Assembly: GCA_036274415.1 (NCBI GenBank)
Contig: DASUFV010000064.1
Span: 2,064-66,063, forward strand
DNA: 64,000 bases
Source of the DNA: Actinomycetes bacterium
GTDB taxonomy: Bacteria > Actinomycetota > Actinomycetes > JAHEKZ01
Reading direction: 5' to 3'
The position numbers were made by a program, and so were the translations under genes. The notes beneath the pieces were generated by a model. That model ran no database searches and was not told where the DNA came from. It was given only the letters and a program-made list of their open reading frames with translations. Shown here piece by piece: positions 3,183 to 47,496 of this stretch (position 1 is its first letter; each line of letters begins with the position of its first letter).

Positions 3183-3746
3183 GTGATGACCGTCGAGGAG
3201 CGAGATCGCCTGGCGCACGTGATCCGCACATTCGGGTTCCTCGACCCGCTCACTGTGCGGAAGCACCCGGCGATGGCCGGGAAGATGGAGATCATCGACG
3301 GCGAGAACCGCTGGACAGTAGGCATCGGTGAGGGGCTGTCGGAGTTCCCGTGTTGGGTGATCGAGGCAGATGATGCTGTCGCGCGTCAGCTAACCCCGAT
3401 CCTCAACGAGCTCCACGGCACGCCGGACCAGGACAAGCTGCGCGAGCTGCTGACCGACCTGCAGGAACGGGTCGGAGAGGAACGGCTGCGCGAGGCCATG
3501 CCGTTCAGCCGCGAGCGGTTCGACGAGATCATGGGTCAGATCAGCGTCGACTGGGGTGCGCTCGAACAGAAGCGTGCCGCGATTGAGCACGGTGGTGAGG
3601 AGCGCTGGGTGGAGCGGGTGTACCGGATGCCGCTCCTCGTGGCCGAAGTCGTCGACCAGGCCATCGCGAAGGCGAAGGACGAAGCCAACGCCGAGCTCGA
3701 CTGGCAAGGATTGGAGTTCGTCTGTGCAGAATTCATGGGACGGTGA
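3183..3746 (+). CDS. ParB-like nuclease-domain protein
   Basis: N-terminal motif LDPLTVRK...EIIDGENRW resembles the ParB/Srx N-domain. Such genes are common next to phage packaging genes. Confidence 0.55.
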   Translation: MMTVEERDRLAHVIRTFGFLDPLTVRKHPAMAGKMEIIDGENRWTVGIGEGLSEFPCWVIEADDAVARQLTPILNELHGTPDQDKLRELLTDLQERVGEERLREAMPFSRERFDEIMGQISVDWGALEQKRAAIEHGGEERWVERVYRMPLLVAEVVDQAIAKAKDEANAELDWQGLEFVCAEFMGR

Positions 3747-6528: not shown

Positions 6529-6879
6529 ATGGCCGGGATCCGGGTGCAGCATCCAGAGCAGCGCAACGTGCGCTACACCGTCGTCGAGCCGAACATCCCC
6601 TATCCGGTCCCCTACGTGTGTACCCCGCCTGAGTTCGGCGGCTGCGGGTCCACGCACCTGTTCAAGACGCATCACCTGAACCTGGACTCAACCGGGGCGG
6701 TGATCGTGTCGACCGGCGTCTTCGCGCGGATCAAGGACCGCCTGGCGCTGGATGGCTTCGTTGTTGCCAACGAGGTCAAGAAGCCGCCGAAGATCGGTAT
6801 CGGTATGAGTGCCGACAAGAGGGGCATGACCCCCGGCATCCAGATCGTCCGCTCACCACACAGCAAGGAGCCTCTCTGA
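6529..6879 (+). CDS. hypothetical protein
   Basis: 116-aa ORF. Stop overlaps the next ATG. Confidence 0.55.
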   Translation: MAGIRVQHPEQRNVRYTVVEPNIPYPVPYVCTPPEFGGCGSTHLFKTHHLNLDSTGAVIVSTGVFARIKDRLALDGFVVANEVKKPPKIGIGMSADKRGMTPGIQIVRSPHSKEPL

Positions 6880-7295
6880 TGGCCAACGCGGTCTACGTTC
6901 CCTTCCGGAATGGTGTCCTTGGTTCGCACACGACCCGTGTGGACCTCGATGCCGACAACATCAAGGCTGTCCTGACCGACCACGGCGCCGACACGCCGAA
7001 CGTCACGACGGACGACTTCCTCAACGACATCAGCGCGGGCACGATCGCGACGTCGGCGAACTTCACCGGCAAGACGATCGGCACGGTCGCAGCTGGCGTG
7101 TTCGATGCCGACAACATCACGTTCACGGCAGTGTCGGGCGCCAGCGTCGAGTCGGTGAACATCTACAAGGACTCGGGCACCGCGGCGACCAGCGACCTGA
7201 TCGCCTACTTCGACACGGGCACAGGACTCCCCGTCACGCCGAACGGTGGCGACATCACGGTCACCTGGAACGCGTCGGGCATCTTCACCTTCTAG
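6879..7295 (+). CDS. hypothetical G/T/S/A-rich protein (fibre or decoration-like)
   Basis: 138 aa. ATGA-type overlap. Confidence 0.55.
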   Translation: MANAVYVPFRNGVLGSHTTRVDLDADNIKAVLTDHGADTPNVTTDDFLNDISAGTIATSANFTGKTIGTVAAGVFDADNITFTAVSGASVESVNIYKDSGTAATSDLIAYFDTGTGLPVTPNGGDITVTWNASGIFTF

Positions 7296-7304
7296 GGGGG
7301 CCTG

Positions 7305-7865
7305 ATGGCTGACAACGTCGGGTATACGCCGGGATCCGGGGTCAGCGTCTCCACCGAGGAGGTGACGACCCTCAATGGTGGCGCTGTTTCCGCCCAGCAC
7401 GTTCAGCGCGTGGCGAATGCGCTGCGCACAGCTGACGGCACGGCGATCGACCTGCCGGGTGACTCGACCAACGGACTCGACGTCGACGTCACCCGGCTTC
7501 CTGTCCCGCACGCCTCGATCGGGACCCCTCTGTCGATCGGACTTGCGACCAGCTCGACCCAAACGAGCGCCAACCTCGTCGCGGGCACGGGCGGTCAGAG
7601 GATCTACGTCACCCATCTGACGATCGCCACCGCGGGGACCACCTCGGGTCGCGTGTCGATCTACTGGGGGACCGGCGCGTTCACGGCGGGCACGAGCCCG
7701 ACCCTGTTCGACGGCGAGTTCAAGCCATCGTCTACCAGGGAGGCCGGAGTGGCGCTGGTATTCCCATTCCCGGTCGGTGGCGCGTCTGCCACCGGCGACA
7801 ACCTGCGCATCACAACCAGTGCCGCGATGACGATCTATGTCACCGGTCAGTGCTACAAGGCGTGA
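7305..7865 (+). CDS. hypothetical G/T/S/A-rich protein
   Basis: 186-aa ORF with the same composition as its neighbours. Confidence 0.55.
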   Translation: MADNVGYTPGSGVSVSTEEVTTLNGGAVSAQHVQRVANALRTADGTAIDLPGDSTNGLDVDVTRLPVPHASIGTPLSIGLATSSTQTSANLVAGTGGQRIYVTHLTIATAGTTSGRVSIYWGTGAFTAGTSPTLFDGEFKPSSTREAGVALVFPFPVGGASATGDNLRITTSAAMTIYVTGQCYKA

Positions 7866-7868: not shown

Positions 7869-8567
7869 GTGGCAATCACGCGAACGGCCAAGGGAACAGC
7901 CTCGCTCAAGACGTCCGGCACGACGCTGACGTTGGCGTCGGTGGCGATGACGACCGGGCATCTCCTTGTCGTCTCGCTGGCCTACGACGACCAGACGCTC
8001 GACTCGGTCACGTGGGGATCTCAGGCCCTGACACTTGGTGACGCCGTCCTCGGAGCCGGGGTACGAACCCGCTTGGCGTGGGGAACGATCGTCTCTGGTG
8101 GGACGCAGACCATCACAGCGACGTGGGCTGCGAGCCTCGTCGCCAAGGCATTCACCGCGTCGTCCTACAACTCGAGCGTAGGCGGGATCGTTCCGACCGA
8201 GGACAGCAACGCGACCAACACCGGGATCGGCACCAGCGCGACTACGGCCGCGCTGGCCGCGATCGTGGGTGGAACCGAGTCAATCCTCGTCGGCGTCGTC
8301 GGCACCGAGGGACCATCTGGCGACACAGCTGGCACGTGGTCAACCCCGAACACCAACGGGCAGCGAGTCGGGACGACCGGCAACCCAGCCGCTGGCAACG
8401 TGACGTGCTCTGAGGCGTATCAGCTCGCGCCGTCCGCGGCCAGCACGCCCTCGCTGTCCAAGACGGGCATGACCAGTCGGGATTGGGGAGCCGCGCTGCG
8501 CGCGTTCTACTGGGCGGCCCCGGCGACCGACACAGGTGGCCTACTCGGTAGTGGCTTCTTCGGCTAA
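7869..8567 (+). CDS. hypothetical G/T/S/A-rich protein
   Basis: GTG start. 232 aa. Confidence 0.55.
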   Translation: MAITRTAKGTASLKTSGTTLTLASVAMTTGHLLVVSLAYDDQTLDSVTWGSQALTLGDAVLGAGVRTRLAWGTIVSGGTQTITATWAASLVAKAFTASSYNSSVGGIVPTEDSNATNTGIGTSATTAALAAIVGGTESILVGVVGTEGPSGDTAGTWSTPNTNGQRVGTTGNPAAGNVTCSEAYQLAPSAASTPSLSKTGMTSRDWGAALRAFYWAAPATDTGGLLGSGFFG

Positions 8568-8578: not shown

Positions 8579-11500
8579 ATGAGCCTCCTGACGCTGCTCC
8601 AGACGACCGTCACCGCGCCGAGTGATGCCTACGGGGCGGCTGTATTCGAAGACCAGCCTATTGCGTTCCTGCGGCTCGACGAAGCCTCTGGGGCCGCCGA
8701 TGACTACATGTCGCCGGGCCGGACTTGGTCCAACAACGGGACGATCACCCAGGGCGTTAGTGGGGTCTTGAACGCACCTGGTGGCACGGCAGTCGAGTTC
8801 GACGGGGTGAACTCGGGTTACTTCCAGAGCCCAGTATCGACTGCTCTCGACATAGCTGACGTGTTCACGCTTGAGGCGTGGATCAAGCCAGACACGTTCA
8901 GTGGTGGCAAGGTCATCCTCCAGAAGGGCACCGGCACGGGCCGGATCACGTGGGAGATGATCGCGACCACGTCACTGGGCCTGTACGTCAATGGCGTCGA
9001 GGCGGCGCATACAGGCGATGTATTCACGGCGGGCCAGCCGTACCACGTCGCTGTCACCAAGAACGGATCGACGACCAAGCTCTACGTCAACGGCGTCGAT
9101 CAGACGATCTTGGGCACCAACAACACGGTCGGGTCAAGCGGTGACACGTGGCGGATCGGTGAGCACAACTCGGGCGGTGAGCTGTTTGACGGCGTCATCG
9201 ACGAAGTCGCGATCTACAACACGGCGCTGTCCGCGGCCCGGGTCAAGGCTCACTACGACGTCGGTGCGAGCGCGTACGCCCGCGAGGTGTTTAGCGACAG
9301 CCCCGTTGCCTACTACCGCATGGGCGAGCCGTCCGGCGACGTTCTCGACGACATGGGCGGGGACTCCGGCGCCGCCACTGGCTCGCTCACGCGCGATGTC
9401 GTCGGTGGCCTGAATACCAGCAACGACGACGGGGCGATCGACTTCGACGGCTCGACCAGCTACGTCTCGGTGCCCCATCAGTCCAAGCTCAATCTCGGCA
9501 ACGGCCCGATGTCGTTCGAGTTCTGGATCAAGCTCGGGAACCTTGGGCTCACCGAGCAGAAGATCATCGACAAGGACACGACCGGTGCGTACCAGGTCGT
9601 CAAGCTGTCGTCGGGAGCGGTACAGCCGAACGGCATCGCGTTCGGCAAGGCCGATGTCGCGTTCATCGCGTCGTCGACGGTCAGCCTTGACTTGGATTGG
9701 CATCACGTCGTCATCACGAAAAGCGGCTCGACGACGAAGATATACATCGACGCCGTCGATCGAACCGGAACCGTGACCGATCAGACGCTCGGCGACACCG
9801 GCGGATCGCTTTACATCGGCTCGCGGCGCGGCGGTGCATTGGAGTTCCTCGACGGCAGCCTCGACGAGCTCGCGATCTACAACACCGAGCTGAGCTCTGC
9901 TCGCATTGCTGCACACTACGACGCGGGAAAGTCGACCGGCGCGCAGTCGGTCAGCGTTGGACTGATCAACCAGGCGGCGACGACGTTCACGCCGACGGTT
10001 ATCGCAGTACGGAACCTGTCGGTCGGCCTGATCAATCAGGCTGCGGCGACGTTTACGCCGACCGTCCTGCAGCAGCAGTTCGTTTCAGTCGGCCTGATCA
10101 ACCGAATGGCCACAGCCAGCACGCCGACCGTCACCTCGCTGGCGACGGTGTCGGTCGGGCTGATCAACCAGGCGGCTACGGCGTTCGCGCCGACGGTCCT
10201 GCAACAGCGGTTCGTCAGTGTGGCGCTGATCAATCGCACAGCGACAGCGTCGACGCCCACGATCACGTCAGTAGCGACGGTCAGCGTTGGTCTGATCAAC
10301 CGCACAGCGGCCACGTTTGCGCCAACGATCACGACCGGCGCGGCGGCGCTCACGGTCGGGCTGATCAATCAGACAGCGGCCACCTTCGCGCCGACGGTCA
10401 TTCCGGGCGCCGTCAACGTCAGCGTTGCGCTGCTGAGCCAGGCCGCGTCGGCGTTCGCACCGACCGTTGGCCGGAACGTCAGCGTTGCTCTGATCAGCCA
10501 GGCTGCGGCGACGTTCACACCGAACATCGGCCGGAGCCTGTCGGTCGGCCTGATCAACCAGACAGCGGTCACATTCACGCCGAGCGTCGGCCGGAACATC
10601 GGCGTTGGGCTTGTCAACCGGACGGCGGTCGCCTCGGCGCCGACCGTCACGAGCGTCGCCTCGATCTCGCTGGCCCTGATCAACCGGACGGCAGTCGCCT
10701 TGGCGCCGACGATCGACGCCGGGCAGGCGGCGATCAGCACGGGGCTGATCAACCAAGCAGCGGTGGCGCTCACGCCAACGGTGACCTCGCTGGCCACGGT
10801 CAGCGTCGGGCTGATCAACCGGACGGCAACGGCCAGTACGCCGACGATCCAGCAACAGCAGTTCGTCGGGCTTGCGCTGATCGACCGGACGGCGGTTGCC
10901 CAGACGCCAATCGTCACGAGCGTTGCCTCGGTCAGCTTCGGGCTGATCGACAGGACGGCCCAGGCGCACGCGCCAGCGATCAGCTACCAGCAGTTCGTCT
11001 CGCTGGGCTTTGTCAGCCAGACGGCGGTTGCCCAAGAACCGACGATCACGACCGGCGCAGGCAGCGTGGTCGTCGATACGATCAACCAGGCGGCGACGAC
11101 GTTCACGCCGACCGTTACGACGGGCGCAGCGACAGTCAGCGTCGCGCTGATTGATCGAACTGCCGCGGCCTTCGCCCCAACGATCACAACCGGCGCGGTT
11201 GGGATCAGTGTCGAGCCCATCAATCAAACGGCAGCAGCGCTCTCGCCGTCGGTCGCGAACATCTACACGATCAGCGTTGGGCGGATTGATCGAACCGCCA
11301 CAGCGTTCAGCCCGGGGATCGTCCAGGCCGGGTTCATCTCGCTGGGTCGCATCAATCAGGAAGCTGCCACGTTCGCTCCGGCGATCACGTCGGGCGAGGC
11401 GCAGGTCGTTGTCGGACTCGTCAGCCAGTTGGCTGCGACGTTCGCCCCGGCCATCGCCGCTCAGGCGTCGATCAGCCTGGGACAGGTCAACCAGACCGCC

Positions 11501-11737
11501 GCTGCATTCGACCCGACGCTGACGACGTTCGCGACGATCAGCTTCGGGAGGGTCGACCAGCCCACGGCGGCGTTCGCGCCGACCGTGAAGCAGTTCGGCG
11601 ACACGCTGCCGTACCCGGTGGACGTGTCGATCTATGTGGAAGCCAAGCCGAGCGCCAGCCTCACCGTCGAGGACGGCTACAAGGCTGAGCTCGCCGCGGA
11701 CGGCTCAATGCTCGCCACCCTGACGAGAGGAACCTGA
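8579..11737 (+). CDS. large fibre-like protein with 2 LamG (concanavalin A-like lectin) domains and about 25 tandem 22-aa repeats
   Basis: 1052 aa. The two LamG signatures are FTLEAWIKPD...DEVAIYNTALSAARVKAHYD and FEFWIKLG...DELAIYNTELSSARIAAHYD. These are followed by repeats of the form VSVGLINQAAATFAPTV, then a C-terminal unique domain. Confidence 0.85.
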   Translation: MSLLTLLQTTVTAPSDAYGAAVFEDQPIAFLRLDEASGAADDYMSPGRTWSNNGTITQGVSGVLNAPGGTAVEFDGVNSGYFQSPVSTALDIADVFTLEAWIKPDTFSGGKVILQKGTGTGRITWEMIATTSLGLYVNGVEAAHTGDVFTAGQPYHVAVTKNGSTTKLYVNGVDQTILGTNNTVGSSGDTWRIGEHNSGGELFDGVIDEVAIYNTALSAARVKAHYDVGASAYAREVFSDSPVAYYRMGEPSGDVLDDMGGDSGAATGSLTRDVVGGLNTSNDDGAIDFDGSTSYVSVPHQSKLNLGNGPMSFEFWIKLGNLGLTEQKIIDKDTTGAYQVVKLSSGAVQPNGIAFGKADVAFIASSTVSLDLDWHHVVITKSGSTTKIYIDAVDRTGTVTDQTLGDTGGSLYIGSRRGGALEFLDGSLDELAIYNTELSSARIAAHYDAGKSTGAQSVSVGLINQAATTFTPTVIAVRNLSVGLINQAAATFTPTVLQQQFVSVGLINRMATASTPTVTSLATVSVGLINQAATAFAPTVLQQRFVSVALINRTATASTPTITSVATVSVGLINRTAATFAPTITTGAAALTVGLINQTAATFAPTVIPGAVNVSVALLSQAASAFAPTVGRNVSVALISQAAATFTPNIGRSLSVGLINQTAVTFTPSVGRNIGVGLVNRTAVASAPTVTSVASISLALINRTAVALAPTIDAGQAAISTGLINQAAVALTPTVTSLATVSVGLINRTATASTPTIQQQQFVGLALIDRTAVAQTPIVTSVASVSFGLIDRTAQAHAPAISYQQFVSLGFVSQTAVAQEPTITTGAGSVVVDTINQAATTFTPTVTTGAATVSVALIDRTAAAFAPTITTGAVGISVEPINQTAAALSPSVANIYTISVGRIDRTATAFSPGIVQAGFISLGRINQEAATFAPAITSGEAQVVVGLVSQLAATFAPAIAAQASISLGQVNQTAAAFDPTLTTFATISFGRVDQPTAAFAPTVKQFGDTLPYPVDVSIYVEAKPSASLTVEDGYKAELAADGSMLATLTRGT
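9950..11580 (+). repeat. in-frame tandem repeat array (period about 63-66 nt, about 25 copies) inside gene 8579..11737
   Basis: Recurring GGNCTGATCAAYCRGRCNGCNRYNRCNTTYRCNCCNACN units seen directly in the sequence. Confidence 0.85.
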
Positions 11738-12108
11738 TGGCCACGAAGCTGCTTGTAGACCGCGGCGACGACGAGATCATCCACATGGCCATCACCAAGG
11801 ACAACGTCGCTGTCAATCTCGAGAACTGCAAACTGTGGTGGTACATCGGCACCTCGTCTGTCCCAGCCGTCGTTCCGAATGCGATCGTGACCAAGGACAC
11901 CGACGGGGCCGACATGGTCGTGATCGACGAGCCGGGCGGACTGATCGACATCACGCTGCATCCAGAGGACACCAACGACATCGCGGTGGGCTTCCTGAAC
12001 AAGGACCTGCCGTGGGAGGTCCAGATCCTCGATGCCGGGGGCAAGATCCAGACGATCGCCCGGGGCACGATCAAGATCCAGGCAGACATCATCCGAGCGG
12101 AGGCGTAG
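11737..12108 (+). CDS. hypothetical protein
   Basis: ATGA overlap at 11735-11739. 123 aa. Confidence 0.55.
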   Translation: MATKLLVDRGDDEIIHMAITKDNVAVNLENCKLWWYIGTSSVPAVVPNAIVTKDTDGADMVVIDEPGGLIDITLHPEDTNDIAVGFLNKDLPWEVQILDAGGKIQTIARGTIKIQADIIRAEA

Positions 12109-13602: not shown

Positions 13603-13798
13603 CCGCCCGCCGACCAAACGACAGATCGAGTGCTTTGAGACCTACGCCAGGTTCGGCGACGGCGCAGAAGCTGCTCGCAGGCTGGGCATCAGCATTCAGC
13701 AGTTGAAGCGCATGTGCGGCCAGTACTATCGTCGCGTCGGCGCCAACAGTGGCGTCCAGGCCGCCTACCTGACGTGGGGCCCGAAGGACAACGCATGA
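13583..13798 (+). CDS. small HTH protein (sigma-70 region 4 / LuxR-like helix-turn-helix)
   Basis: GTG start after AAGGAG. TKRQIECFETYARFGDGAEAARRLGISIQQLKRM. Confidence 0.55.
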   Translation: MGRRTIDRPPTKRQIECFETYARFGDGAEAARRLGISIQQLKRMCGQYYRRVGANSGVQAAYLTWGPKDNA

Positions 13799-14418
13799 TC
13801 GAACTCGAGCCGGTCGATCCCGAGTTCTACGACCGGGAGTACTACACCAGCGGGACCAAGTCGAACTACGCGCCGTACGGCCCCGGGTCGTGGGCCGACT
13901 GGATCGTCGATATGGCCATGAACCACGTGAAGCCGAGGCCGTCGAGCGTGCTCGATGTCGGTTGCGCGTATGGCTTCCTGGTGGAGCGGTTCTGGAACCG
14001 GCTGGGAGTTCCGGCCTGGGGGTTCGACATCTCCCGGTACGCCATCGAGAAGCAGGGGTTTCTCGGGCGGACATGGGTGGGCGATTGCGCGGATCCGGCT
14101 GCATGGAAGACCGTCGACCTTACGCTCGCGTGCGAGCTTGGTGAGCACCTGACGCCAGCGCAGGCACAGCAGATGCTTCGGAACGCATTCACGTTCAGCA
14201 ACCGAGCGTTGATGCTCATCGCGGTTGACCTGGGCGACTACGACAGTCACGCAGAGACCGATGGATCGCACATCCACGTGGTGCCGATGGCCTGGTGGGA
14301 ACAGGCAGCACGAGAGGCAGGCTGGAGCGTCGCGGACGCCAGCGCGTTCAATGAAGACTGGCGTTCGAGCCAGATGGGTTGGTCGGGCCGCTGGCTCTAC
14401 CTGACAAAGGAGGCGTAA
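13795..14418 (+). CDS. class I SAM-dependent methyltransferase
   Basis: ATGA overlap. Motif I VLDVGCAYGFLVERF. Confidence 0.75.
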   Translation: MIELEPVDPEFYDREYYTSGTKSNYAPYGPGSWADWIVDMAMNHVKPRPSSVLDVGCAYGFLVERFWNRLGVPAWGFDISRYAIEKQGFLGRTWVGDCADPAAWKTVDLTLACELGEHLTPAQAQQMLRNAFTFSNRALMLIAVDLGDYDSHAETDGSHIHVVPMAWWEQAAREAGWSVADASAFNEDWRSSQMGWSGRWLYLTKEA

Positions 14419-16559: not shown

Positions 16560-16780
16560 CCGGCCGTCACCCGCTATCTTGCGGGGGACTAGGGCTCCCG
16601 GGCCCAACGCCGGACGGACGGTGCGCAATGCGCTGTCCGACCGACCCGGTCGATCCCCACGGGAAGACGTGGTTCCCCGAGCCGACGTGATCTCGGCGAG
16701 TGGGGTATGGGACCACGCACCGGGTCTTTCTCTTTCAACCATCAGCCGGGCGTGAGTGCGCGTCCGGCGTGGAGGTATGC

Positions 16781-18049
16781 ATGGCGCGGGTTCTTTGGAT
16801 CGGTGACGCTGGCTCGCACACGGGCTTCGGCCGCGTGACCCGCGAGCTCACCACTGGGCTCCTCGATCGCGGACACGACATCACGGTCCTGGGGCTGAAC
16901 TTCACGGGCGATTACGACCCGGACATCGACCAGCGGCTGAAGGTGTACCGAGCCGACCTGTACGGCTACAACGATATGTTCGGGGTGCGGCGCGTACAGG
17001 AGATGGTCGACCACGTCGAACCCGACGTCAGCGTCGTCATGCACGATCCGGCGGCAGTATGGCAATACCTCTGGGAGAACCCATACGACCCGGGGCAGAG
17101 GCTGTTCAGCCGTCCGGTGCTGGCCTACTGCCCGGTGGATGGGTACGACTACCCCACCGACTGGACCGAGATGCTGCCGCAGGCCACGAACTTCGTGACC
17201 ATGAGCCAGCACGGCGCGAGCATCTTCAAGCCGTCCGCCGTCGTTCCACACGGCGTGCGGTCGGAGTTCTTCTATCCCGTCGCGGAAGGTGAGCTGCTGA
17301 CGGACGACGGGCAGGTGCTGGGCTCCAAGGAGGAGTGCAAGGAGCACCTCGGGATCGACCCGTCTCGGTTCCTGGTCCTTCGCGTCGACGCGAACTCGGG
17401 TCGCAAGGACTTCGCCGCCACGATCCGCGCCGTCGCTCCGCTGTTGGAGCGTCAGCGCGACATGACGATGTGGTTGCACACCAACACAGATCCGCGGTCG
17501 CCGGGCGTGAAGATCCGCTCGATGCTCAACCGCTACGACCTGGCCCCAACCCAGGTGATGCTGTCGGACTTCGGCAACGGCACCAAGGGCTGGCCAGAGA
17601 ACAGATTGCGCATCCTCTACAACGCAGCGGATGTGTTCGTCAGCACGAGCCGGGGAGAGGGCTTTGGCCTGACGATCGCCGAGGCCATGGCCTGCGGCGT
17701 CCCCGTCATCGCGCAGAACGTGTCGGCGATCCCCGAGACCGTCGGGCCAGGCGGCGTCCTGATCGACTCCGACCGGCGCATCACTGTACCCGCGGGCCAG
17801 GACTTGTGCCTGGCCGACATCGACGCCTTCACCGAGGCCCTCGAACGGCTCTACACCAACGAGGTGTGGCGCACCGAGCTCGGGCAGGCAGGCCGGAAGC
17901 ACGTCACCGAGTCCTTCAGATGGGACACCGCGGTGGACAGCTTCCACGACTTCATCGAGCGGATTGCCGCTCGCTGGAGAGCATCGCAGGAGGCACCAAC
18001 CGATGGATCTGAACGAGCAGATCTCCCTGATGAAGGCGCTGGGGGTTGA
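16781..18049 (+). CDS. GT4-family (GT-B fold) glycosyltransferase
   Basis: GGAGGT precedes ATG 16781. EGFGLTIAEAMACGVPVIAQ is the GT4 E-x7-E region. About 422 aa. Preceded by a terminator and a roughly 220-bp leader. Confidence 0.85.
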   Translation: MARVLWIGDAGSHTGFGRVTRELTTGLLDRGHDITVLGLNFTGDYDPDIDQRLKVYRADLYGYNDMFGVRRVQEMVDHVEPDVSVVMHDPAAVWQYLWENPYDPGQRLFSRPVLAYCPVDGYDYPTDWTEMLPQATNFVTMSQHGASIFKPSAVVPHGVRSEFFYPVAEGELLTDDGQVLGSKEECKEHLGIDPSRFLVLRVDANSGRKDFAATIRAVAPLLERQRDMTMWLHTNTDPRSPGVKIRSMLNRYDLAPTQVMLSDFGNGTKGWPENRLRILYNAADVFVSTSRGEGFGLTIAEAMACGVPVIAQNVSAIPETVGPGGVLIDSDRRITVPAGQDLCLADIDAFTEALERLYTNEVWRTELGQAGRKHVTESFRWDTAVDSFHDFIERIAARWRASQEAPTDGSERADLPDEGAGG

Positions 18050-24657: not shown

Positions 24658-27600
24658 ATGGCTGGCGAGACAATCGACGCGATCCGAGTCGGACTTGGCA
24701 TCGACCGCACCGCCCTCCGGCAGGACATCGCTGCAGCCAACCGCGAGTTCAACGCGCTGCCGTCGCAGAAGACGGTCAACATCCACGTCGCCGTCCACAC
24801 GCCCACTCGAGCTGTGGAGCAGGCGTACGAGAGCATCCAGAAGCAGTTCGACTTTCGGCAGCGCCAGGCTGGGTCCGAGGCGCTCCGGATCAGCCCGCGG
24901 ATGGTCGTCGACCCGCGGGTCATGCGCGACTTCCGGCGCGACATCGAGCGCAACATGCGCCAGTCGGCGCAGCAGGGCCAGGCGATCCGCGTTCCCGTGC
25001 GCTTCAACGGGGATGTGCGCAGCTTCATCGCCAGCGTCCAGCAGGCCGTCCGCAACGAAACGGTCACGATCGGCGTCAAGGGCGACTGGCGGGGCGGCCC
25101 GGGTGGCGGGACCGGCGGTGGTGGAGTAGGCCGCACTGGTCCGAGTCAGCGCCCGCCGACGGGCGGCGCTCCGGCGGCTCAGCCCGAGCCTGCTCGATCG
25201 CGCCCGGCTACCGCTCGTGCCCGCGGCACCGCCACCGAGGTGCGTTCCGGTGACGTCTATGAGGCCCAGGAGCAGCCGCCGCGCACGCCGCGCCAGCAAC
25301 GTCAGACACAGCGGCGTCAGCGCATGGGCGCTGGCGCTCCGGCTGGCGCGCCAGCGCCTCTCCCTGCGGCAGTCATGCCTGCAGACGCGCGTGGCCGCGT
25401 CGACATCGGCAACGTGCGCCAGTCGAGCAGCGGCGTACAGGAGCTGCAGGGCGAGGAGCGCACCGCCTACATCAGCCAGCAGCGCGCCCGCCCGACACGC
25501 CCGATGGGCCAGTTCCGCCAGCGTGGCGAGCGCGTTCTGACGGCAGCCGACCTGCTGCAGATCAGCAACCAGCAGGAGGTCAACGAGTACCGCTCGCAGG
25601 ACGAGCGTCGGCAGGCTGCGCGCGCCCGGGGTATGTCGCCACGCGACGTCGCTACGCGCGAGCACATTCGCTCTGGTTTCCACTCGCTCGATCCCGATCT
25701 GGCGGCCCTCTATGACCGCCTTATGGACCCGGAGCCCAACTTCAGCTTTGACCAGTTCATACAGGCCGCCGAGGCTGGGCGCGAGGCGTACGGCACGGCG
25801 TTCCACGGCTCGCCGAAGCAGGTCCGTCGCCAGCGTGCCGTCGCGCGCGGGACGAAGAAAGGCGACATCAACGAAGTCGACCCGACTCTCCTGGTGTTCG
25901 ACGCCGCGCTCGACGCTGCCCGTGAGTTCCAGCGCAACATGATGGATCCGCTCAACGCGGTTCGAGCGGGCGACAACAAGCGGCGTGGCCGTGGCGGGAA
26001 GGTCGGTCAGATCGGCGGGCGGAACGCAGGCCGACTGGCATCGACGTCGATGGCGCCAGAGGATCTTGAGGAGCGCATTCGCAAGGAGTCGCGGCGAGCA
26101 GCGCGGCTCCGGCAGCAAGCTGCTCCAGACATTGTCGCGGGGCAGGCGTATGGCGGTGGTGCCGAGATCATTGCACAAGGGCTGGCGCCGTCGATCGCGG
26201 GTGGCCAGGGCCTGACGCGTGGGTCGGGGGTCAAGGCCCGGGGTCGAGCACAGATCGACATCGACATCGAGAAGATGAACGCCGGGCAGATGACCCGCGA
26301 GGAGTTTGAGCGGCGCCATCGCGCCCGCATCCAGGGCTTCGCCGAGGGCGGCCGGATGCGCCGCAACTGGGGCGATAACGAGTACATGCGCGGCCTGTAC
26401 GGTCGCGACATCGGCGCCTCGTTCGGGGCGCCCGAGGGGCACGAGAACGTCGCCCGGGCCAACACTACCGAGTGGAAGCGGACGCGCCGGAACCAGCTGC
26501 GCGAGCAGCCCTTCTGCGCTCACTGTGGCATCGGTCGCGCCGAGGCCCGCTCTCGCGGGATCCCGCTCTCGGCCGACAAGATCCGGAGCCAGGCGCAGGG
26601 CGGCAACCCGTTCGACCCGAGCAACCTGCAGACGCTGTGCAGCTCATGCAACAGCCGGAAGTCGGGTTCATCGGCCCAGCCGCTGATGACGTGGACCCAT
26701 CCGCGCCCGAACATCGGCAGTCACCCGAAGTGGAGCCAGGTTCCCGAGGGTGAGTTCCTGCCGACGGGCAAGTTCTTCGGTGTCTCGTCACTGTCCGAGA
26801 TGCTGTCGCGCTCGAAGGGGCAGGGGCAGGTCGAGAAGCGCGCCGAGGGCGGTCAGGTCAAGCACGGCGGCCTACTCCAGCGGATGGCGCAAGCTGGCCA
26901 CCAGCCGTCGATCACGCTGGTCGGCGAGCGCGGCCCGGAGCTGCTCGTCACCGATGAGAAGACGGGCGAGACCGAGGTCGTCCCGACTCACAAGGTCCCG
27001 ACTTGGCTGCAGCGCGCCCAGGGATCTGCCAAGGGTCTCGCGAAGGACATGACCGAGCGTGGCGGTGGCGGTCGCATGGCTCGGATGTGGAAGTGGGGCG
27101 GCGGCTACGCCGAGGGCGGCCAGCTGCGGATGCGTGACACCCTCGGTCGCCCGGCTCGCGCCACAGAGGCGCGGATGACCGGCGGCGTGCTGGCCGGTGG
27201 CGACATCACCCGCGTGTTCGTCGTCAACTGGCCGAACCTGCTGGCCAGCCCGGGGCAGTTCGCTCAGAGCATGGGCCAGGCACAGGCACAGGCGGCGCGG
27301 AGCAACCCACAGCAGGCTCGGGCTGCGTCCCCGCCTCCTGGTCAGCAGCAGAACCAGCAGGGGCCGCAGGGCCCCGGTGCTGGCGCTCCTGCAGGCGCTC
27401 CGGCGCCCGGCGCGACCACGGCTGCGCGTCTCGGCCGCGTCGATCCGCTCCTGCGTGTCCGTGCCCGACGAACGGGCTTCCAGGCGGTCGGCGCCCTCGA
27501 GGAGGAGCTGCAGACCGCGCAGGCCGGGATTGGCGAGGCGCTGCAGCGAACACCTGTCCGCGCCCTGTCGGTTGCCTTCGGGCAGATCGCACAGAACGTC

Positions 27601-31614: not shown

Positions 31615-34600
31615 ATGCCGACCTTCAACAAGGGGTTCTTCGACCCGAACATCTTCGACACCGGCCCAGTCGGCGAGGCGTTCCAGAACAACGCCTTCCA
31701 GCACGACGCGTTCCAGGTCGGAGACGTCGTCGTCGGGTTCATCAACCAGACGGCGACGCCCTTTGCCCCGACGATCTCGACTGTCGGAGCGCAGACCTAC
31801 AGCGCGCCACTGATCGATCGAACAGCGGTCGCGTTCGCCCCGACGGTGTCGCTCAGCCTCTCGGTCGGGTTGATCAACCAGGCCGCGGTTGCGTTCGCTC
31901 CGCTGGTAGCGAAGAAGCAGACCGTCACGGTCGCGCGGATCAACCAGAATGCGGTCGCCAATGCGCCAGCCGTCGTTCTGGGCGAGTACGCGGTCCTGAT
32001 CGTGTCGCACACCCCGGTCGCCTACTGGCGACTCGGAGAGGCATCCGGCACCACCGCCGGGGACTCGTGGGACAGCCATCCCGGCTTCTACGAGAACACG
32101 CCGACGCTGGGCGTTACAGGCGCCCTGGCCAACGACACGAACAAGGCGGTCACGCTCAATGGCACCAACGAGTGGATCAGCGTCGCCGATCACTCGGACT
32201 TCGACTACGAGGGTGACTTCACCTTCGAGGCGTGGGTCAAGCACTCGGGCGTCTTCGGCACCTTCCACGACGCACTAATCGGCAAGGGGCCGGGCAATGT
32301 CCCGTTCTGGTGGATCGCGCCCGACGGCGACATGGTCCTGCGCGACGGCAGCCTGTCGACGAACGTCAGCAGGACCGTGGATCCGGTCATCACCGACACG
32401 AACTGGCACCACCTTGTCGTCACCTACGAGAAGGGCGTCGAGTGTCGGATGTTCGTGGACGGCGTCGAGGTGGCCGTCGACGGGTTCAACGATGCGACGT
32501 TCGTCAACGGCTCCGGGTCGGTGGGCCTGGGCTCCGGCTGGGGTTCGGTCTGGTCCGATGGCTGGCATGGGTCGCTCGACGAGATCGCGATCTACAACTA
32601 CGTCCTGACCCCGACGCAGGTCACCCAGCACTACCTCGTCGGGGCTGGCGTCGACGTCATCCTGCCGCGGATCAACCAGGCCGCCGTCGCGTTCAGCCCG
32701 TCCGTGGTTGGCGGCACGCTGTTCGTCACCCTGCCGCTGATCAATCAGGCCGCCGCTACGTTCGCGCCGACCGTGGCCGGGCCGCAGGACGTCGCCCTGG
32801 GGCTGATCAACCAGGCGGCGGCGACCTTCGCGCCCACGATCACCGGCGGCACGGTCTTCACCGATGCGTCAGCGAGCTTGGCGGTCTCGCTGGACATGAC
32901 AGCCACCGCCTCGAGCGACGTGGTGGGCGGCGCCAGCCTGGGGATCGACGTCAACCTGACCGCCACAGCTGAGCGCGACCTGCCGTTGCCGACCCCGCCT
33001 GGTGGCGGCGGCAGTGGCGGGACGGGCGGCAACTCAGGCGGCCCCTATCCACCGTCTATCACCGTGATCAAGGTCAACGGTGTAGATGTGTCTGACGACG
33101 TCCGCTATCGGGACGCCACGTTCACGTCCCAGGTCAACGGCACTCCCGGCGAGTGCTCGTTCGCCATCCGCGATCTCGGCCACGAGCACGGTTTCAAGTT
33201 CGGCCAGACGATCACCGTCGACGTGAACGGGAAGCGCCAGTGGCGCGGCTTCGTCCGCCAGGTCAAGCGCCAGTACACGGCGCCGGTCGTCGATACCACC
33301 GATCCCGACACAACCGCGCGCTGGTTCCTGATCATCGGCTGGGACATCAACGTCCTGCTTCAGAAGCGGATCGTCTGGAACAAGTCCAACCCGACCAAGG
33401 GTCTGCTCACGCCGCCCTCGAGCCTGCGCGATCCGAAGCACGCTGGCCAGTGGGTCGAGGACTCCCCTGTCGAGGACGTCGTCCGCTATTGCCTGCAGAA
33501 CTACACCGACCTACCCGCGGACGGCGTGTCACTGTCGGGCATCGACATGGCGGGAACGCCCAACCCCGACTTCGCCGCAGCCTACTCGGGCGCGATGCCG
33601 ATTGATGCGTTCATGCACGACCTCAATCGCCTGCTGTCGGGGATCTACTACATCACCCCGCACATGCGGTTCTGCTACCACAGCGTCGAGAAGACGACGA
33701 CGCCGTACATCATCTCTGATGCGCCACACCTGGCCGGGAGCTATGGCGTAGGTCCGCGCGAGTATGAGCTGGTCAGCGACGGCGCGCAGATGGTCAACGA
33801 CGCGATGCTGTGGGGCACGGCGCCGGGCGTTGATGTGCCCGGTGGCGGCGTGGCTGTGTTCAGCCGGACGACGGACTCCGACTCGATCGACCGTCACGGC
33901 CGCTGGCAGTTGGGCGATACGAACTTCGGGATCTACAAGCAGACGAGTGCCGACCAGCGCACCGAGTCAATGGTGTATGGCAACGACGCCTCGCGGATCG
34001 CGCCGAAGGACGACCGCATCAGCGTGCTTGCGACCGTGTTCGAGCCGCTATTCGAGCTCGGCGACGTGGTGCGCTGTGAGCAGCGCGTGTTCGACGGCAC
34101 GCCGGACACTCCGTTCGAGACCGACGAGGACTACGTCGCGATCAACCTGCCCGTCCGGCGGATGACGCTGACGTTCCCAACCAAGACCGCGACCCGCTGG
34201 CAAGTGCTCCTCACCCAGGAGCTCGACGAGCCGTGGTCGATCTACGAGTACATCTTCCCGAAGATCCCGGGGTTCCGGTTCCCGCCGTGGCCGCCGTTCG
34301 GCCCTTGGCCCCCTCTCCCGTGGCCGGATATCCCGGAAGGCTGGGGACCGGGTGATGGCGGCTGCACTGACGAGGTCTGCGGCATCACCGATACGTTCAG
34401 CCGGACGGTGCTCGGCGGTTGGGGCACCAGCGATGCTGGAGTTGCCTGGACGACGGCTGTGCTTGGAAGCGGGACGACCTCGATAAACGTGCTCGGGAAT
34501 GTGTATGGGTCGCTCCTGAACTCAGGGTCTTCCGCCGGTACGAGTGTCGTTGCCACGCTCGGCGGCACTGTCCCGAACGAGTACGTCACGAGGTGGGATC

Positions 34601-36654
34601 CCACGAAGGTCAAGACCATCCGGTTCCAGTGGGCTAACGTGGACCCGATCTACTCGGACGATCACTTCTACATCAACTGGGGCGTCTTCAGGGCGGTTGG
34701 GCAGCCACTCCCGAGCATCGTGTGGCGTGGCGACCTCGGCGGGGCCAGCGGCGGTACGAGCGGCTCGTGGCACATCCGCACGACTGGCGGCCTGCTTGAC
34801 GGAACGCTGATCCCCAACAGCTTCTGGAACGACTTCACGATCTATACGTGGACGTGCTACGACGACGGCGGGACGTTCTACACCTCGATTACCGATGGCG
34901 TCGACACGTATACGGCAAGCCAGGGGTACAGCGGCGACCAGGACATGCGACTCGGGCTCACGTTCCATTCCGCCCTGCAGTTCCCCTTCGACGAGACCGG
35001 ACGATCGATCGCGATCCACGACATCGACATCCCTGAGATCAACGCTTGCTCCGAGTACCGCTTCGACAACTTCAACCGGACGGTGTCTGGCAACTGGGGC
35101 GTCTCAGATCAGGGTGATCCGTGGACTAATACTGGCCCCGGTGGCTATACGGCCAAAGCGGTTGCCGATGGTTACGGCAAGATCGAGCAAGGTCCGGGCT
35201 TCACGGGTGGTCTGACCGGGGTCAAGGTCAACGGCAGCCAGTCCGGCTCCGGTCGCTGGAAAGACACCATATTCTCCTGTCTCACCAGACTAAAGATCCA
35301 AGCGTCCAGCGCGGGCAGTAACGGCACAGCTGGGTTCTTCTTCGATCAAACTGCGAGCCCGTTTGGCAGAACCGGCTTCGGGATCAACAAAGGCACCGAT
35401 GTAATCGAGCTGTTCTTCGGTGACGCCTTCTCGTCGAGCACCTCCATCAGTGCGGCAACGACCCTGACGGTCGGTAGCCACTACCTGATCCGCTATGAGC
35501 GCACGGAAGACAGCCATCGCGTGAAGATCTGGGCAGATGGCACAGCCGAACCGACCAGCTGGACGCTGGAAGACGACGGGATCACGTGGGGTGGCGCAGA
35601 CGACTTCACGATCTACCACCAGCGCAGTTCCTCGTCCAGCCTCGACTGGAAGGTCTGGTACGACTACATCGACTTCGACTACGAGGGCAAGCCGTGCCAC
35701 TGCTCCGAGATCGGCGAGACCGTCGTTCTTGACGACTTCAATCGGTCGAGTGGGGGCCCTGGATGGGGCGTAGCCAGTTCGGGCTTTGAGTGGTTCGAGC
35801 ATTTCGACTGGTCCGGGTTGTCGGTTGACGGCACGCGAGCGGTGGCGCACTGGGGATCGTCAGACAGCGATACATTCGGCACCTGGCTAGGCAGCCCGCT
35901 CTCTGCGGGTGGGACCGGCCCGTGGGCGACGTACCCATCGTGGGAGATGACGGCCCGCTGGAGGTTTGACGTAGTAGCGAGCATCCCCAGCATCGGTGGC
36001 GGATCGCCTGACGCTGCCCTTCAGTTCGTGATTGCGAATACGCCTGGGTCGATCAGGCTCCGCGTCGACGTCACTGATACGTCGAGCTACGATCCGATCA
36101 TCTACATCGACAACGCTTCGGGTGGGAACTCAGCCGTTGCGAACTGGGTAGCCCTCGCGAACACCGATTACCTGATCAAGTGGCAGTACGCCAGCGGAGT
36201 TCATCGAGCAAAGATCTGGCAGGCAAGCGCGGCTGAACCTCCATGGATGGTCACCGCTGTGGCGCCTGCGACGCTCAACCCGACCTCGTTCACGGTGAAT
36301 CAGACCTACAAAGACTCGATTACGCTGACGACTCCGTGGAGAGAACGCAATCAGTGGATCGACTACATCTCCTTCACCGAAGTTGGGTGCGTCGAGGGCG
36401 GGGGCGGCGACGGCCTGCCAAACAGCGGCTTTGTGTGCGAGACCCTTGAGCACTCAGGCGGCAACGGCCCGTTCTTCGCCAGCCGCAGCTTCGGATATGG
36501 CACGCTCGAGGTCTACATCAACGGGGAGCTGCTGTTCCCTGACCAGTACACCTCCACCAGCGCGTCGTTCACCCTGGAGGCGACGATCGCGTCGAACGCG
36601 CAGCTTCGGATCTGCTACAACGCCCTCGGCCCAACCGCACTGGGAGACGTCTGA
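31615..36654 (+). CDS. large multi-domain minor tail / fibre protein
   Basis: 1679 aa. Domain order: 7 copies of the LINQAAATFAPTV repeat, a LamG domain, a module homologous to the N-terminus of gene 36654, then three roughly 230-aa repeated C-terminal modules (F-R-V-GWG-SD-G-W). Confidence 0.85.
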   Translation: MPTFNKGFFDPNIFDTGPVGEAFQNNAFQHDAFQVGDVVVGFINQTATPFAPTISTVGAQTYSAPLIDRTAVAFAPTVSLSLSVGLINQAAVAFAPLVAKKQTVTVARINQNAVANAPAVVLGEYAVLIVSHTPVAYWRLGEASGTTAGDSWDSHPGFYENTPTLGVTGALANDTNKAVTLNGTNEWISVADHSDFDYEGDFTFEAWVKHSGVFGTFHDALIGKGPGNVPFWWIAPDGDMVLRDGSLSTNVSRTVDPVITDTNWHHLVVTYEKGVECRMFVDGVEVAVDGFNDATFVNGSGSVGLGSGWGSVWSDGWHGSLDEIAIYNYVLTPTQVTQHYLVGAGVDVILPRINQAAVAFSPSVVGGTLFVTLPLINQAAATFAPTVAGPQDVALGLINQAAATFAPTITGGTVFTDASASLAVSLDMTATASSDVVGGASLGIDVNLTATAERDLPLPTPPGGGGSGGTGGNSGGPYPPSITVIKVNGVDVSDDVRYRDATFTSQVNGTPGECSFAIRDLGHEHGFKFGQTITVDVNGKRQWRGFVRQVKRQYTAPVVDTTDPDTTARWFLIIGWDINVLLQKRIVWNKSNPTKGLLTPPSSLRDPKHAGQWVEDSPVEDVVRYCLQNYTDLPADGVSLSGIDMAGTPNPDFAAAYSGAMPIDAFMHDLNRLLSGIYYITPHMRFCYHSVEKTTTPYIISDAPHLAGSYGVGPREYELVSDGAQMVNDAMLWGTAPGVDVPGGGVAVFSRTTDSDSIDRHGRWQLGDTNFGIYKQTSADQRTESMVYGNDASRIAPKDDRISVLATVFEPLFELGDVVRCEQRVFDGTPDTPFETDEDYVAINLPVRRMTLTFPTKTATRWQVLLTQELDEPWSIYEYIFPKIPGFRFPPWPPFGPWPPLPWPDIPEGWGPGDGGCTDEVCGITDTFSRTVLGGWGTSDAGVAWTTAVLGSGTTSINVLGNVYGSLLNSGSSAGTSVVATLGGTVPNEYVTRWDPTKVKTIRFQWANVDPIYSDDHFYINWGVFRAVGQPLPSIVWRGDLGGASGGTSGSWHIRTTGGLLDGTLIPNSFWNDFTIYTWTCYDDGGTFYTSITDGVDTYTASQGYSGDQDMRLGLTFHSALQFPFDETGRSIAIHDIDIPEINACSEYRFDNFNRTVSGNWGVSDQGDPWTNTGPGGYTAKAVADGYGKIEQGPGFTGGLTGVKVNGSQSGSGRWKDTIFSCLTRLKIQASSAGSNGTAGFFFDQTASPFGRTGFGINKGTDVIELFFGDAFSSSTSISAATTLTVGSHYLIRYERTEDSHRVKIWADGTAEPTSWTLEDDGITWGGADDFTIYHQRSSSSSLDWKVWYDYIDFDYEGKPCHCSEIGETVVLDDFNRSSGGPGWGVASSGFEWFEHFDWSGLSVDGTRAVAHWGSSDSDTFGTWLGSPLSAGGTGPWATYPSWEMTARWRFDVVASIPSIGGGSPDAALQFVIANTPGSIRLRVDVTDTSSYDPIIYIDNASGGNSAVANWVALANTDYLIKWQYASGVHRAKIWQASAAEPPWMVTAVAPATLNPTSFTVNQTYKDSITLTTPWRERNQWIDYISFTEVGCVEGGGGDGLPNSGFVCETLEHSGGNGPFFASRSFGYGTLEVYINGELLFPDQYTSTSASFTLEATIASNAQLRICYNALGPTALGDV

Positions 36655-38240
36655 TGCCGACCGGCTCCACGATCGCCATCAAGATCGCGGGCGTGAACGT
36701 CACGAGCTATGTGCTGCCGTCGACGTGCCGCTTCGAGAGCCAGCTCAACGCCGTTGCTGGGACGTGGCAGTTCACGCTCAAGGACGTCGACCACACGCTG
36801 GGTCCGTTCGAGACCGGCTCGATCATGGACCTGACCGTTGACGGGACGCAGCTGTACCTCGGCTTCTTGCTCCAGGTGAGCCGGACCTACCCGTTCCCGG
36901 CGATGGACACGGTCAATACGCCGCCTGACGAGACCCCTCGCTACTGGACGTTGCGCGGCGTCGACTTCAACCGGCTGTTCGACAAGCGGGTGCTGCGCAA
37001 CCCGGCCGACTTCTATCACCAGCTGCCGAACTTCCCGAGCACGTCGATGGACGGCGACCTGATCCAGCAGCTGTGTGATGACTTCCTCGACCTCGACGGG
37101 CTGGTCGACTACACCACCCATGTCGAGAACATCCGACCGCCGTTCGAGGGGCAGGACGAGGGCGCCTGGCTGGCGCAGGGCACGCCGTGGCGCAAGCAGA
37201 TGGAGGACTTCGCCCAGTTCTCGGGCGCCGTCTGGTACCTCGGCCCGAAGAACGCCACGACGGCGTACCTCTGGTACAAGGAGATCGAGGACGCTGTGCA
37301 TCGCTGGGGGTTCAGCGACAACCCCAACTACAACTCGATCAGCGCGTCTCCGACGAGCTTCCAAGGCGCCACGATCGGCCCGCGCGAGATCGAGGCGACC
37401 GAGGCAGGTGACCACATGGTCAACGACGCCCTGATCTGGGGAGGCAGCTCGTGGGCGGGCGGCACCGGCGGCATCGTGTTCGCCCGGGAGACCAACGCGA
37501 CCTCGATCACCGAGCACGGCCGCTGGCAGTACGCCGAGGTCCACATCGGCGAGGAGGGCTACAAGCTGCAGGAGGGCGTTGACGTTCGCGCCGACGTCAT
37601 CGTCAACGGTCCCCCTGGTGCGGTCGATGCCGACCAACAGCGCGGTCTGCGCTACCCCCAATGGAACGTGCGCCTGACGTGGTTCGCCCATCAAGTGCCG
37701 ACCATCTCAGGCGTTCCGGATCACCTCTACCCGGGCGCGCTGTCGACGATCGAGCTGCAGGTGTTCGAGGACGGCGATCCACTCACGCTGCTGTTGCCGT
37801 GCCGCCAGATCACGATCACGATCCCATCGCTCGATCCGAATGGCGATGGCTACGTGCAGTTCGGCGGGTTCTTCGGCCTGCAGCCTGACGATCCGTACAC
37901 GCTCTGGCGGTTCCTGCTCAAGGCTCAGCGGACGGCGCAGCAGGCGCTCATCGCAGTCGTCGACGAGAACTCAGATGCGACCCAGTACGGCGCAATCGGC
38001 AACTTCATCCCGACACCGGCGCCGAACGGGTCCGCAACTGTGTTCACCTGCGCGTTCGGCTACATCGCGGGGACCACGAGGGTCTACCTCAAGCCAGCCG
38101 GATCCACTGGCGGCGGCCTGCTGCTCTATCCGGGCCTCGACTACACCGAGTCGGACCCGATCGCGGGGCAGATCACCCTCAACGTGGCGCCCGCCACGGG
38201 CTCGCAGCTGATGGTCAACTGCCGGACGCTCGGCTCGTAG
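36654..38240 (+). CDS. minor tail protein (N-terminal module shared with 31615..36654; Dit-like?)
   Basis: 528 aa. ATGA overlap. IAIKIAGVNV...FTLKDVDH...GF.LQV.RTY aligns to an internal segment of the upstream protein. Confidence 0.65.
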   Translation: MPTGSTIAIKIAGVNVTSYVLPSTCRFESQLNAVAGTWQFTLKDVDHTLGPFETGSIMDLTVDGTQLYLGFLLQVSRTYPFPAMDTVNTPPDETPRYWTLRGVDFNRLFDKRVLRNPADFYHQLPNFPSTSMDGDLIQQLCDDFLDLDGLVDYTTHVENIRPPFEGQDEGAWLAQGTPWRKQMEDFAQFSGAVWYLGPKNATTAYLWYKEIEDAVHRWGFSDNPNYNSISASPTSFQGATIGPREIEATEAGDHMVNDALIWGGSSWAGGTGGIVFARETNATSITEHGRWQYAEVHIGEEGYKLQEGVDVRADVIVNGPPGAVDADQQRGLRYPQWNVRLTWFAHQVPTISGVPDHLYPGALSTIELQVFEDGDPLTLLLPCRQITITIPSLDPNGDGYVQFGGFFGLQPDDPYTLWRFLLKAQRTAQQALIAVVDENSDATQYGAIGNFIPTPAPNGSATVFTCAFGYIAGTTRVYLKPAGSTGGGLLLYPGLDYTESDPIAGQITLNVAPATGSQLMVNCRTLGS

Positions 38241-47312: not shown

Positions 47313-47496
47313 CGAGGACCCGCCGAGTGGCCTTGATCCTTGCGTTGAACCTGTTCACCGGATCAGCTCCGGTACCACGCACTGTGTCCCTGCCATCGAG
47401 GAGGTCTTCGACGTGCTTCCCCAGCGCCTCGATGACCTCCTCCAGCCCTTCACGGTAGACGCGGATCCGAGCCCTGCCGGTCTTGGCGTCCTCCAT
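47236..47496 (-). CDS. hypothetical protein
   Basis: 86 aa. Overlaps its neighbours at both ends. Confidence 0.4.
   Translation of the reverse strand: MEDAKTGRARIRVYREGLEEVIEALGKHVEDLLDGRDTVRGTGADPVNRFNARIKATRRVLDEAIRTQAEQGWQEAHSGQQERSDT

Follow-up and report, generated by a model that had tools for sequence, protein, structure and literature searches.

Two genes in a 64,000-nucleotide (nt) stretch of DNA deposited as Actinomycetes bacterium (66.6-kb contig DASUFV010000064.1 of a metagenome-assembled genome, positions 2,064 to 66,063; hereafter the window, with coordinates counted from its first letter) encode tandem arrays of a protein unit of 22 amino acids (aa). The window represents the genome of a tailed phage, uncultured and probably actinobacterial, that is organised in a rightward structural arm and a leftward arm. 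The two genes are open reading frame (ORF) 8579..11737, referred to as gene A, and ORF 31615..36654, gene B. The copies of the unit are old and strongly diverged in their DNA, and are therefore best regarded as a conserved building block of the protein rather than as a recombination hot spot. The reading that we favour, with a probability of roughly 60%, is that of an old, modular shaft repeat operating at the protein level, which displays LamG modules, whose DNA has diverged and whose copy number is slow to change.

Layout of the two repeat genes

The features of both genes are listed below; proteins of the repeat family carry P numbers and loci carry L numbers.

8579..11737 (+): gene A, 1052 aa, consisting of LamG, LamG, a 25-unit array and a 47-aa C-terminal tail
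8624..9943 (+): two LamG/concanavalin-A-like domains of gene A (about aa 16-232 and 233-455; PF13385 and blastp)
9947..11602 (+): array of 25 units in gene A, from residue 457 to about 1008 (unit hidden Markov model, HMM; Tandem Repeats Finder, TRF)
31615..36654 (+): gene B, 1679 aa, 3′ of the tape-measure-like gene, product identical to HEX5016526.1
31723..31986 (+): units B1-B4 of gene B (unit HMM; motif at residues 37-124)
31975..32652 (+): LamG of gene B (about aa 121-346; Pfam E 2.7e-19; AlphaFold2 predicted local distance difference test score, pLDDT, 80-97)
32653..32853 (+): units B5-B7 of gene B (unit HMM, TRF; motif at residues 347-413)
33058..34179 (+): conserved core of gene B (aa 482-855), common to P0030, P0037, P0040, P0048, P0055 and the next gene of the window
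36654..38240 (+): 528-aa paralogue of the gene B core (phmmer E 8.6e-30)

An HMM of the unit detects 25 units in gene A (nt 9947-11602) and seven in gene B, all with independent E-values (i-E) below 0.01, and TRF together with repeat finding recovers the same arrays; these numbers agree with an earlier note on this DNA, which had counted about 25 and seven copies at these places. In a six-frame translation of the 64-kb window, no other ORF reaches i-E < 0.6 with the unit HMM. The repeat is thus genuine and well above what chance would produce. The units of gene A are 20, 22 or 23 aa long, corresponding to periods of 60, 66 and 69 nt, and follow the consensus x-V-S-V-G-L-I-N/D-Q/R-T-A-x-x-F-x-P-T-V/I plus a linker of 2-5 aa. 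A three-unit alignment gives xVSVGLINQTAxAFAPTV, and every unit has one invariant Ala and one invariant Pro.

The LamG domains that the earlier note had seen in both genes are likewise recovered. PF13385 (Laminin_G_3) matches gene A in two stretches (E 1.5e-45, 155.5 bits) and gene B once (E 2.7e-19, 70.3 bits), with a Pfam cut-off of 27.6 bits, and the two domains of gene A are 35% identical to each other by blastp. In gene B the order is four units, LamG, three units, a Gly-rich linker, a conserved tail-tip core and C-terminal globular modules. Both genes are singletons without variants on record, and both are named only 'LamG domain-containing protein'; the product of gene A is identical to NCBI HEX5016502.1, 'LamG domain-containing protein [Actinomycetes bacterium]'. 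No close cultured relative of the window was found, searches of cultured phages with gene A at the nucleotide and protein level returned distant LamG matches only, and a scan of viral contigs with gene A gave no match.

Divergence of the units at the DNA level

Tandem DNA repeats are here considered recombinogenic if their copies are roughly 90% or more identical and share long exact homology. Across a 51-nt core, the pairwise identity of the units averages 62.7% and peaks at 84%; across full units the mean is 59%, with 83% for the best pair (A8/A9), and the match rates reported by TRF are 68-76%. Where two units share an amino acid, they also share the codon in 52.8% of cases within gene A, 58.5% between genes A and B and 63% within gene B, while codon usage alone predicts 48-57%. 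Since the same-codon frequency lies at the expectation from codon usage, synonymous sites are saturated. Some synonymous similarity is retained in a few local pairs of units, 10415/10475 (0.86, n = 14) and 10793/10925 (0.76, n = 21), which are still 17-27% diverged.

Long exact homology is confined to one 33-nt segment of gene A; neither gene contains any other exact DNA repeat that reaches 23 nt:

9964..9996 (+): 33-nt exact repeat, first copy
11080..11112 (+): 33-nt exact repeat, second copy, in frame and 1116 nt from the first

Genes A and B have no exact stretch of 23 nt or more in common (the longest is 20 nt, at 10157 and 32800), gene B has no such repeat of its own, and the best 200-nt windows are 71% identical within gene A and 59% identical between A and B. 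The array of L001 (P0001, 23 units) has a mean identity of 61%, a maximum of 74% and a same-codon frequency of 0.525; for the 34 units of the L011 array, in which a single exact repeat of 23 nt is present, the corresponding values are 62%, 83% and 0.56. No pair of units reaches 85% identity in any of the three arrays (gene A, L001 and L011), and recent duplication and gene conversion are therefore absent from them.

The earlier note had described the DNA repeats as near-identical, in tandem and between the two loci, and hence as recombinogenic. The first description does not hold, and the second is not supported, at mean identities of 59-63%, maxima of 83-84% and longest exact runs of 33 nt within gene A and 20 nt between the genes, and the synonymous divergence to which the note itself had pointed as evidence to the contrary is what the codons display.

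A family of unannotated protein repeats

With the repeat region of gene A as query, 30 proteins were found among 5.8 billion. A three-unit profile retrieves 242 clusters at E <= 1e-3 among 1.84 billion (1.84e9) representatives, 131 of them at E <= 1e-10. The repeat has no match in Pfam, NCBIfam, PHROGs or the PDB (phmmer), and aa 455-1010 of gene A are covered by neither Pfam nor NCBIfam nor PHROG models. Pfam scans of ten family members returned one match, Peptidase_S49 in P0002 (20.1 bits, cut-off 24.9); because this single match is sub-threshold, none of the ten has a reliable Pfam domain. The unit is a previously unannotated protein repeat that belongs to a rare clade of high-GC, probably actinobacterial, phages.

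Across the family, the number of units ranges from 3 to 34 with dominant periods of 22, 23 and 20 aa, and the linker subtypes TSLA, TTGAV, GR and TSVA recur in several proteins. The units of gene A resemble their sister units no more than they resemble units of unrelated family members. The architecture around the arrays varies: arrays precede a Gly-rich linker and a conserved tail-tip core in gene B, P0030, P0035, P0037, P0040, P0044, P0048 and P0055, they flank LamG in gene B, P0001 and P0008, and in the 1413-aa protein of L005 the array is interrupted by other globular modules. Many members carry arrays without a recognisable lectin domain. AlphaFold2 models the 25-unit array as all-beta with regularly patterned strands, each unit contributing one 7-residue strand and short bridges, at a pLDDT of 61; in the model of gene B aa 1-470, LamG is confident and the short arrays are poor.

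A separate observation concerns the C-termini of the family. A conserved acidic peptide, ...FxPxVERSDDEVLLGLSDEDLLVLV, ends P0001, P0002, P0004, P0007, P0031, P0033 and the protein at 10133-15157 of L011, and is absent from gene A; it may be an attachment or chaperone signal.

Changes in unit number

The family provides one pair of close relatives that differ in the length of the array. P0004 and P0007, from different samples, are 97% identical in aa and 95.4% in nt, and one has exactly one 22-aa unit more than the other. The position of the junction is ambiguous within an exact repeat of 13 nt, TCGACCAGACGGC, that codes for the conserved DQTA core, and the two neighbouring units at this junction are otherwise 52% identical. 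The difference cannot be a recent duplication, and from its sequence context we read the insertion or deletion (indel) as a probable microhomology-mediated deletion, not as homologous recombination of near-identical copies. In gene A, in-register exact runs of at least 13 nt occur in 21 of 300 unit pairs and in 4 of 24 adjacent pairs. L010 and L011, which come from two samples, are 99.9% identical and have no unit-sized indel over about 11 units.

Most likely, the number of units drifts slowly in the family, and P0004/P0007 is the one documented event. The earlier note had proposed that the arrays expand and contract; variation across the family bears this out in part, and what is not supported is a hot spot for such changes in the window phage.

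The cassette upstream of gene A

Gene A is preceded by a conserved pair of genes and by a further ORF:

6529..6879 (+): 116-aa Cys/His-containing protein, first of the conserved pair, without a match in Pfam, PHROG or the PDB
6879..7295 (+): 138-aa homologue of the Bxb1 gp31 'tail wing arm' (PDB 9D93, phrog_644), second of the pair
7869..8567 (+): 232-aa ORF that ends 11 nt upstream of gene A; matched at 78% identity by the N-terminal 225 aa of the L005 array protein (1413 aa)

In phage Bxb1, the tail wing is a dispensable accessory of the tail tip; its base, gp30, binds the tail spike, the arm gp31 and the brush gp33 bind gp30, and the arm links the base to the distal brush (PMC12646305). The brush gp33 is a glycine-rich polyproline-II bundle (PMC13243192). 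The 138-aa protein matches the gp31 chain of 9D93 with E 1.8e-14 over residues 38-138 and has 447 phage homologues, mostly in mycobacteriophages, some of which are annotated 'minor tail protein' and lie among tail genes. The 116-aa protein is also present in L001, L005, L007 and L010-L018, with a 31%-identical homologue in L006.

The pair precedes an array protein in five contexts, namely the window, L001, L005, L006 and L007. Across these five loci the 139-aa member is 51-88% identical and the 116-aa member 31-77%, far above the conservation of the cargo. Of the 64 viral loci that encode an arm homologue, nine also have the 116-aa partner, and the arms of these nine are about 80% identical; a weaker match to the partner (E 8.4e-11) is present in L060 and L061. 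The cassette is located 3′ of the portal gene in L001, L005 and L011; the window has it between terminase and portal. In L001 and L005, the array protein is encoded in the head-gene region with a gene for a family 4 glycosyltransferase (GT4) nearby; P0030, the homologue in L004, is found at the position of gene B, 3′ of the tape-measure gene.

In L005, the domain corresponding to 7869..8567 is fused directly to the repeats; judged by this comparison, relatives appear to differ by the fission or fusion of a gene. A TAA stop, a strong GGAGG and an ATG in another frame rule out that 7869..8567 is joined to gene A by a frameshift; gene A starts with its own GGAGG Shine-Dalgarno sequence 6 nt upstream of the ATG. 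A kinship of 7869..8567 with the P0006-type N-domains, suggested by eye, found no support (hhalign probability 21%).

Gene B and its surroundings

From its place in the genome we infer that gene B encodes a tail-tip protein, possibly of the Tal or baseplate-hub type. The core of gene B gave no match in Pfam or the PDB, either as a single sequence or as a family profile. A tandem of the core and its paralogue, as in gene B and 36654-38240, is suggested in L004 too, where an 862-aa protein is followed by one of 511 aa.

Other short repeats and modules occur in gene B and its relatives. The N-terminus of gene B contains a 15-nt tandem repeat (31681-31716) that encodes AFQNN/AFQHD, and the Tal-like proteins P0030, P0036, P0040 and P0048 have a peptide repeat of another kind at the N-terminus, SQxPVExxxSPTSxKAR, about 17 aa long. 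A further globular module that recurs, and that opens with D-x-F-x-R-x-V...W-G, lies at about 34390-36000, in the C-terminal half of gene B. A motif scan finds two copies there (aa 926 and 1151), and a third at about aa 1370 is apparent by eye only; the module also occurs once between arrays in each of the L005 (5760-10001) and L011 (10133-15157) proteins. The copies have weak BLAST similarity (49% over 41 aa, E 8e-8).

Function of the arrays and rival explanations

In the reading that we favour, a beta-strand unit of about 22 residues would be stacked 25 times in the product of gene A and 4+3 times in that of gene B. Gene A would be the variable cargo of an accessory cassette that includes the 116-aa protein and the gp31-like wing arm, and gene B would carry a units-LamG-units cassette on a glycine linker ahead of the tail-tip core. 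The array would thus act on the virion as a spacer or shaft that holds LamG-type, presumably carbohydrate-binding, modules away from the particle for adsorption to the host surface. That two genes share the unit would reflect the ancient reuse of a module, the DNA of which would since have diverged to synonymous saturation.

It is important to point out that several observations weigh against this reading. The confidence of the structural models is low, with pLDDT values of 61 (25-unit array) and 37-65 (short arrays), and a Foldseek search of the PDB with the array model returned nothing significant, the top hits being beta-helices, all at E > 0.6. Ligand binding by LamG is assumed from the name of the family. 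The cassette of the window sits in the head-gene region and not among tail genes. Many phages have the arm homologue but no array, and arrays are present in 2 of the 64 viral loci (L010 and L011, both of the close nine); since the array is found in these two only, the array protein is an optional cargo. Homologues of the gp30 base and the gp33 brush were not identified, and in a PDB search with ORFs of the cassette, the arm was alone in matching a chain of 9D93; that search covered 6529-6879, 6879-7295, 7305-7865, 7869-8567 and the repeat and C-terminus of gene A, leaving out ORF 11737-12108 and the LamG half of gene A. The assignment of gene B to the tail tip, finally, is drawn from gene order only, its position 3′ of the tape-measure gene being a fitting one.

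The alternative put forward in the earlier note, in which frequent homologous recombination between the repeats resizes the fibre, shuffles domains between genes A and B and diversifies the host range, is in our view very unlikely. The phage does encode a recombination module, an Erf-family single-strand annealing protein and a PD-(D/E)XK nuclease close together at 47496-48479 (-) and 48690-49517 (-). Erf/Exo pairs still recombine 800-bp substrates that are 78% identical (22% divergence), and Red-beta requires an exact segment of at least about 23-27 bp (PMC3945230). The in-frame 33-nt repeat of gene A, the in-register runs of at least 13 nt, the one-unit difference between P0004 and P0007 and the range of unit numbers in the family can be counted on the same side. 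However, the divergence of the arrays, by mean identity as well as in the best 200-nt windows, exceeds what has been tested with annealing recombinases, and the arrays fall outside the range of these enzymes, with the single 33-nt segment as the exception. Synonymous saturation and the lack of an exact A-B segment of at least 23 nt argue in the same direction, as does the absence of a unit indel between L010 and L011. The LamG domains of genes A and B are 29-30% identical (blastp); because of this, and because the units of gene A are no closer to their sisters than to foreign units, there is no trace of recent A-B exchange or concerted evolution, and the proposed shuffling of domains between the two fibre genes finds no support. 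Furthermore, A and B lie in direct orientation at a distance of 22.6 kb, and the portal, protease, capsid, tail and tape-measure genes fall between them, so that a single crossover would delete essential genes and would be expected to be lethal.

Two further explanations concern the units as proteins. The units might themselves be the adhesin, a multivalent beta-hairpin or solenoid whose polar N/D-Q/R-T residues bind a repetitive cell-wall polymer while LamG is secondary, a proposal that we hold to be unlikely. The polar triplet recurs in every unit, the high copy number would suit avidity, and the many arrays without a recognisable lectin domain would be accounted for. The choline-binding repeats of pneumococcal and phage lysins, at about 20 aa, offer a comparison. 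On the other hand, the unit has no match in sequence or fold to any binding repeat, the conserved polar residues could equally be structural ladders, and arrays that adjoin or are interrupted by globular domains fit a connector better. Hardly any weight is given to a glycan brush, in which the Thr/Ser/Pro/Ala-rich units would be acceptors for a phage glycosyltransferase and the array would shield the virion or mimic the host surface. Such a role would be in keeping with the P-T and the T/S-rich linker of every unit and with the GT4 gene near the repeat-protein gene in the window (16700..18049), L001 and L005, the last of which adds an epimerase and a GT2; moreover, glycosyltransferases of mycobacteriophages have been suggested to glycosylate capsid proteins (PMC11256854). 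The case is nonetheless purely circumstantial: GT4 also adjoins the protease and capsid genes, the usual suspected targets, the array of gene B is 15 kb away from GT4, and no glycosyltransferase lies near the family members in L004, L006 and L007.

The reading of the array as a shaft could be extended, in a form that we regard as speculative and rather doubtful. The unit would then be a new fibre or solenoid fold that replaces the polyproline brush on the gp31-type arm in one clade of actinobacterial phages, the number of units (3 to 34) would set the reach of the lectin through the host envelope, and the codons would be kept scrambled since the Erf protein of the phage destroys arrays of similar DNA.

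More generally, a striking protein repeat need not mean recombinogenic DNA, and a simple codon test tells the two apart. The analysis flags an unannotated repeat family of about 240 clusters, all 'hypothetical' or 'LamG domain-containing', as well as a cassette of the 116-aa and gp31-like proteins; together they probably form accessory adsorption structures on actinobacterial phages. Their use is modest and lies in the annotation of minor tail proteins and in structural targets among mycobacteriophage-like tail accessories, with no new mechanism implied.

Other genes of the window

The tape-measure-like protein (24658-30504, +; 1948 aa) contains an HNH endonuclease motif at about aa 600-685 (PF01844 E 2e-4; PHROG HNH families down to 2.9e-12), and no intein or Hint domain was detected in it. 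A methyltransferase gene (13714-14418, +) and the GT4 gene (16700-18049, +) lie within the head-gene block, immediately 5′ of the genes for protease and capsid, an arrangement that suggests possible glycosylation of the virion. The window also encodes a protein with a ParB N-terminal domain (3183-3746), a RadC-like JAB protein (52103-52591) and an FtsK/SpoIIIE-type ATPase (53731-54474).

Comparison with known systems

Diversity-generating retroelements (DGRs) resemble the present case in that repeated sequence is found in a gene of the receptor-binding type. They differ in their adenine-specific mismatches and in their near-identical pair of template and variable repeats, neither of which is seen here: 44% of the mismatches between units involve A, the commonest class is C/G, and there is no DGR-like adenine bias. 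The mismatch pattern, the lack of a near-identical pair and the lack of a reverse transcriptase among about 40 ORFs scanned, which is a partial check, rule out a DGR, in line with what the earlier note had concluded.

Tandem domain modules on phage structural proteins are familiar from the immunoglobulin-like domains of virions. The 'evolved' Dit and Tal proteins of siphophages that infect Gram-positive hosts carry inserted carbohydrate-binding modules. Gene B is comparable to the latter in that a LamG module is added to a putative tail-tip protein 3′ of the tape-measure gene; unlike in those proteins, the module of gene B is N-terminal, is flanked by 22-aa repeats and is followed by a glycine linker, and the core has no Pfam or PDB relative.

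In Enterococcus phage EfV12-phi1, the tail-fibre gene acquires new and identical tandem duplications of 1.8 kb in a matter of days, and these vary inside a single lysate (Wandro et al. 2019, PMC6365445); this is the kind of process that the earlier note envisaged. Common to both systems is a repeated segment of a fibre gene that adjoins a predicted carbohydrate-binding domain, whereas the units described here measure 60-69 nt, have an identity of about 60% and are saturated at synonymous sites. The BACON repeats of crAssphage (PMC6949934) share with the 22-aa unit the tandem arrangement of modules on virion surface proteins, a number that varies between relatives and a link to carbohydrate binding; they are whole domains of about 80-100 aa from known families, as opposed to a 22-aa strand-turn element of an unannotated family.

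With regard to the tail wing of Bxb1, the differences lie in the parts attached to the arm and in their setting. Bxb1 has a D-Ala-D-Ala carboxypeptidase base, while no gp30-like carboxypeptidase base was found here and the Pfam scans detected no carboxypeptidase domain. The cargo is LamG plus a 22-aa beta repeat without a PDB relative instead of the polyproline-II gp33, the 116-aa Cys/His partner is not described for Bxb1, and the cassette of the window is placed in the head-gene region. The resemblance lies in the arm itself, with a gp31 homologue encoded two genes upstream of gene A, and in a cassette that looks accessory and that varies in both its cargo and its position in the genome.

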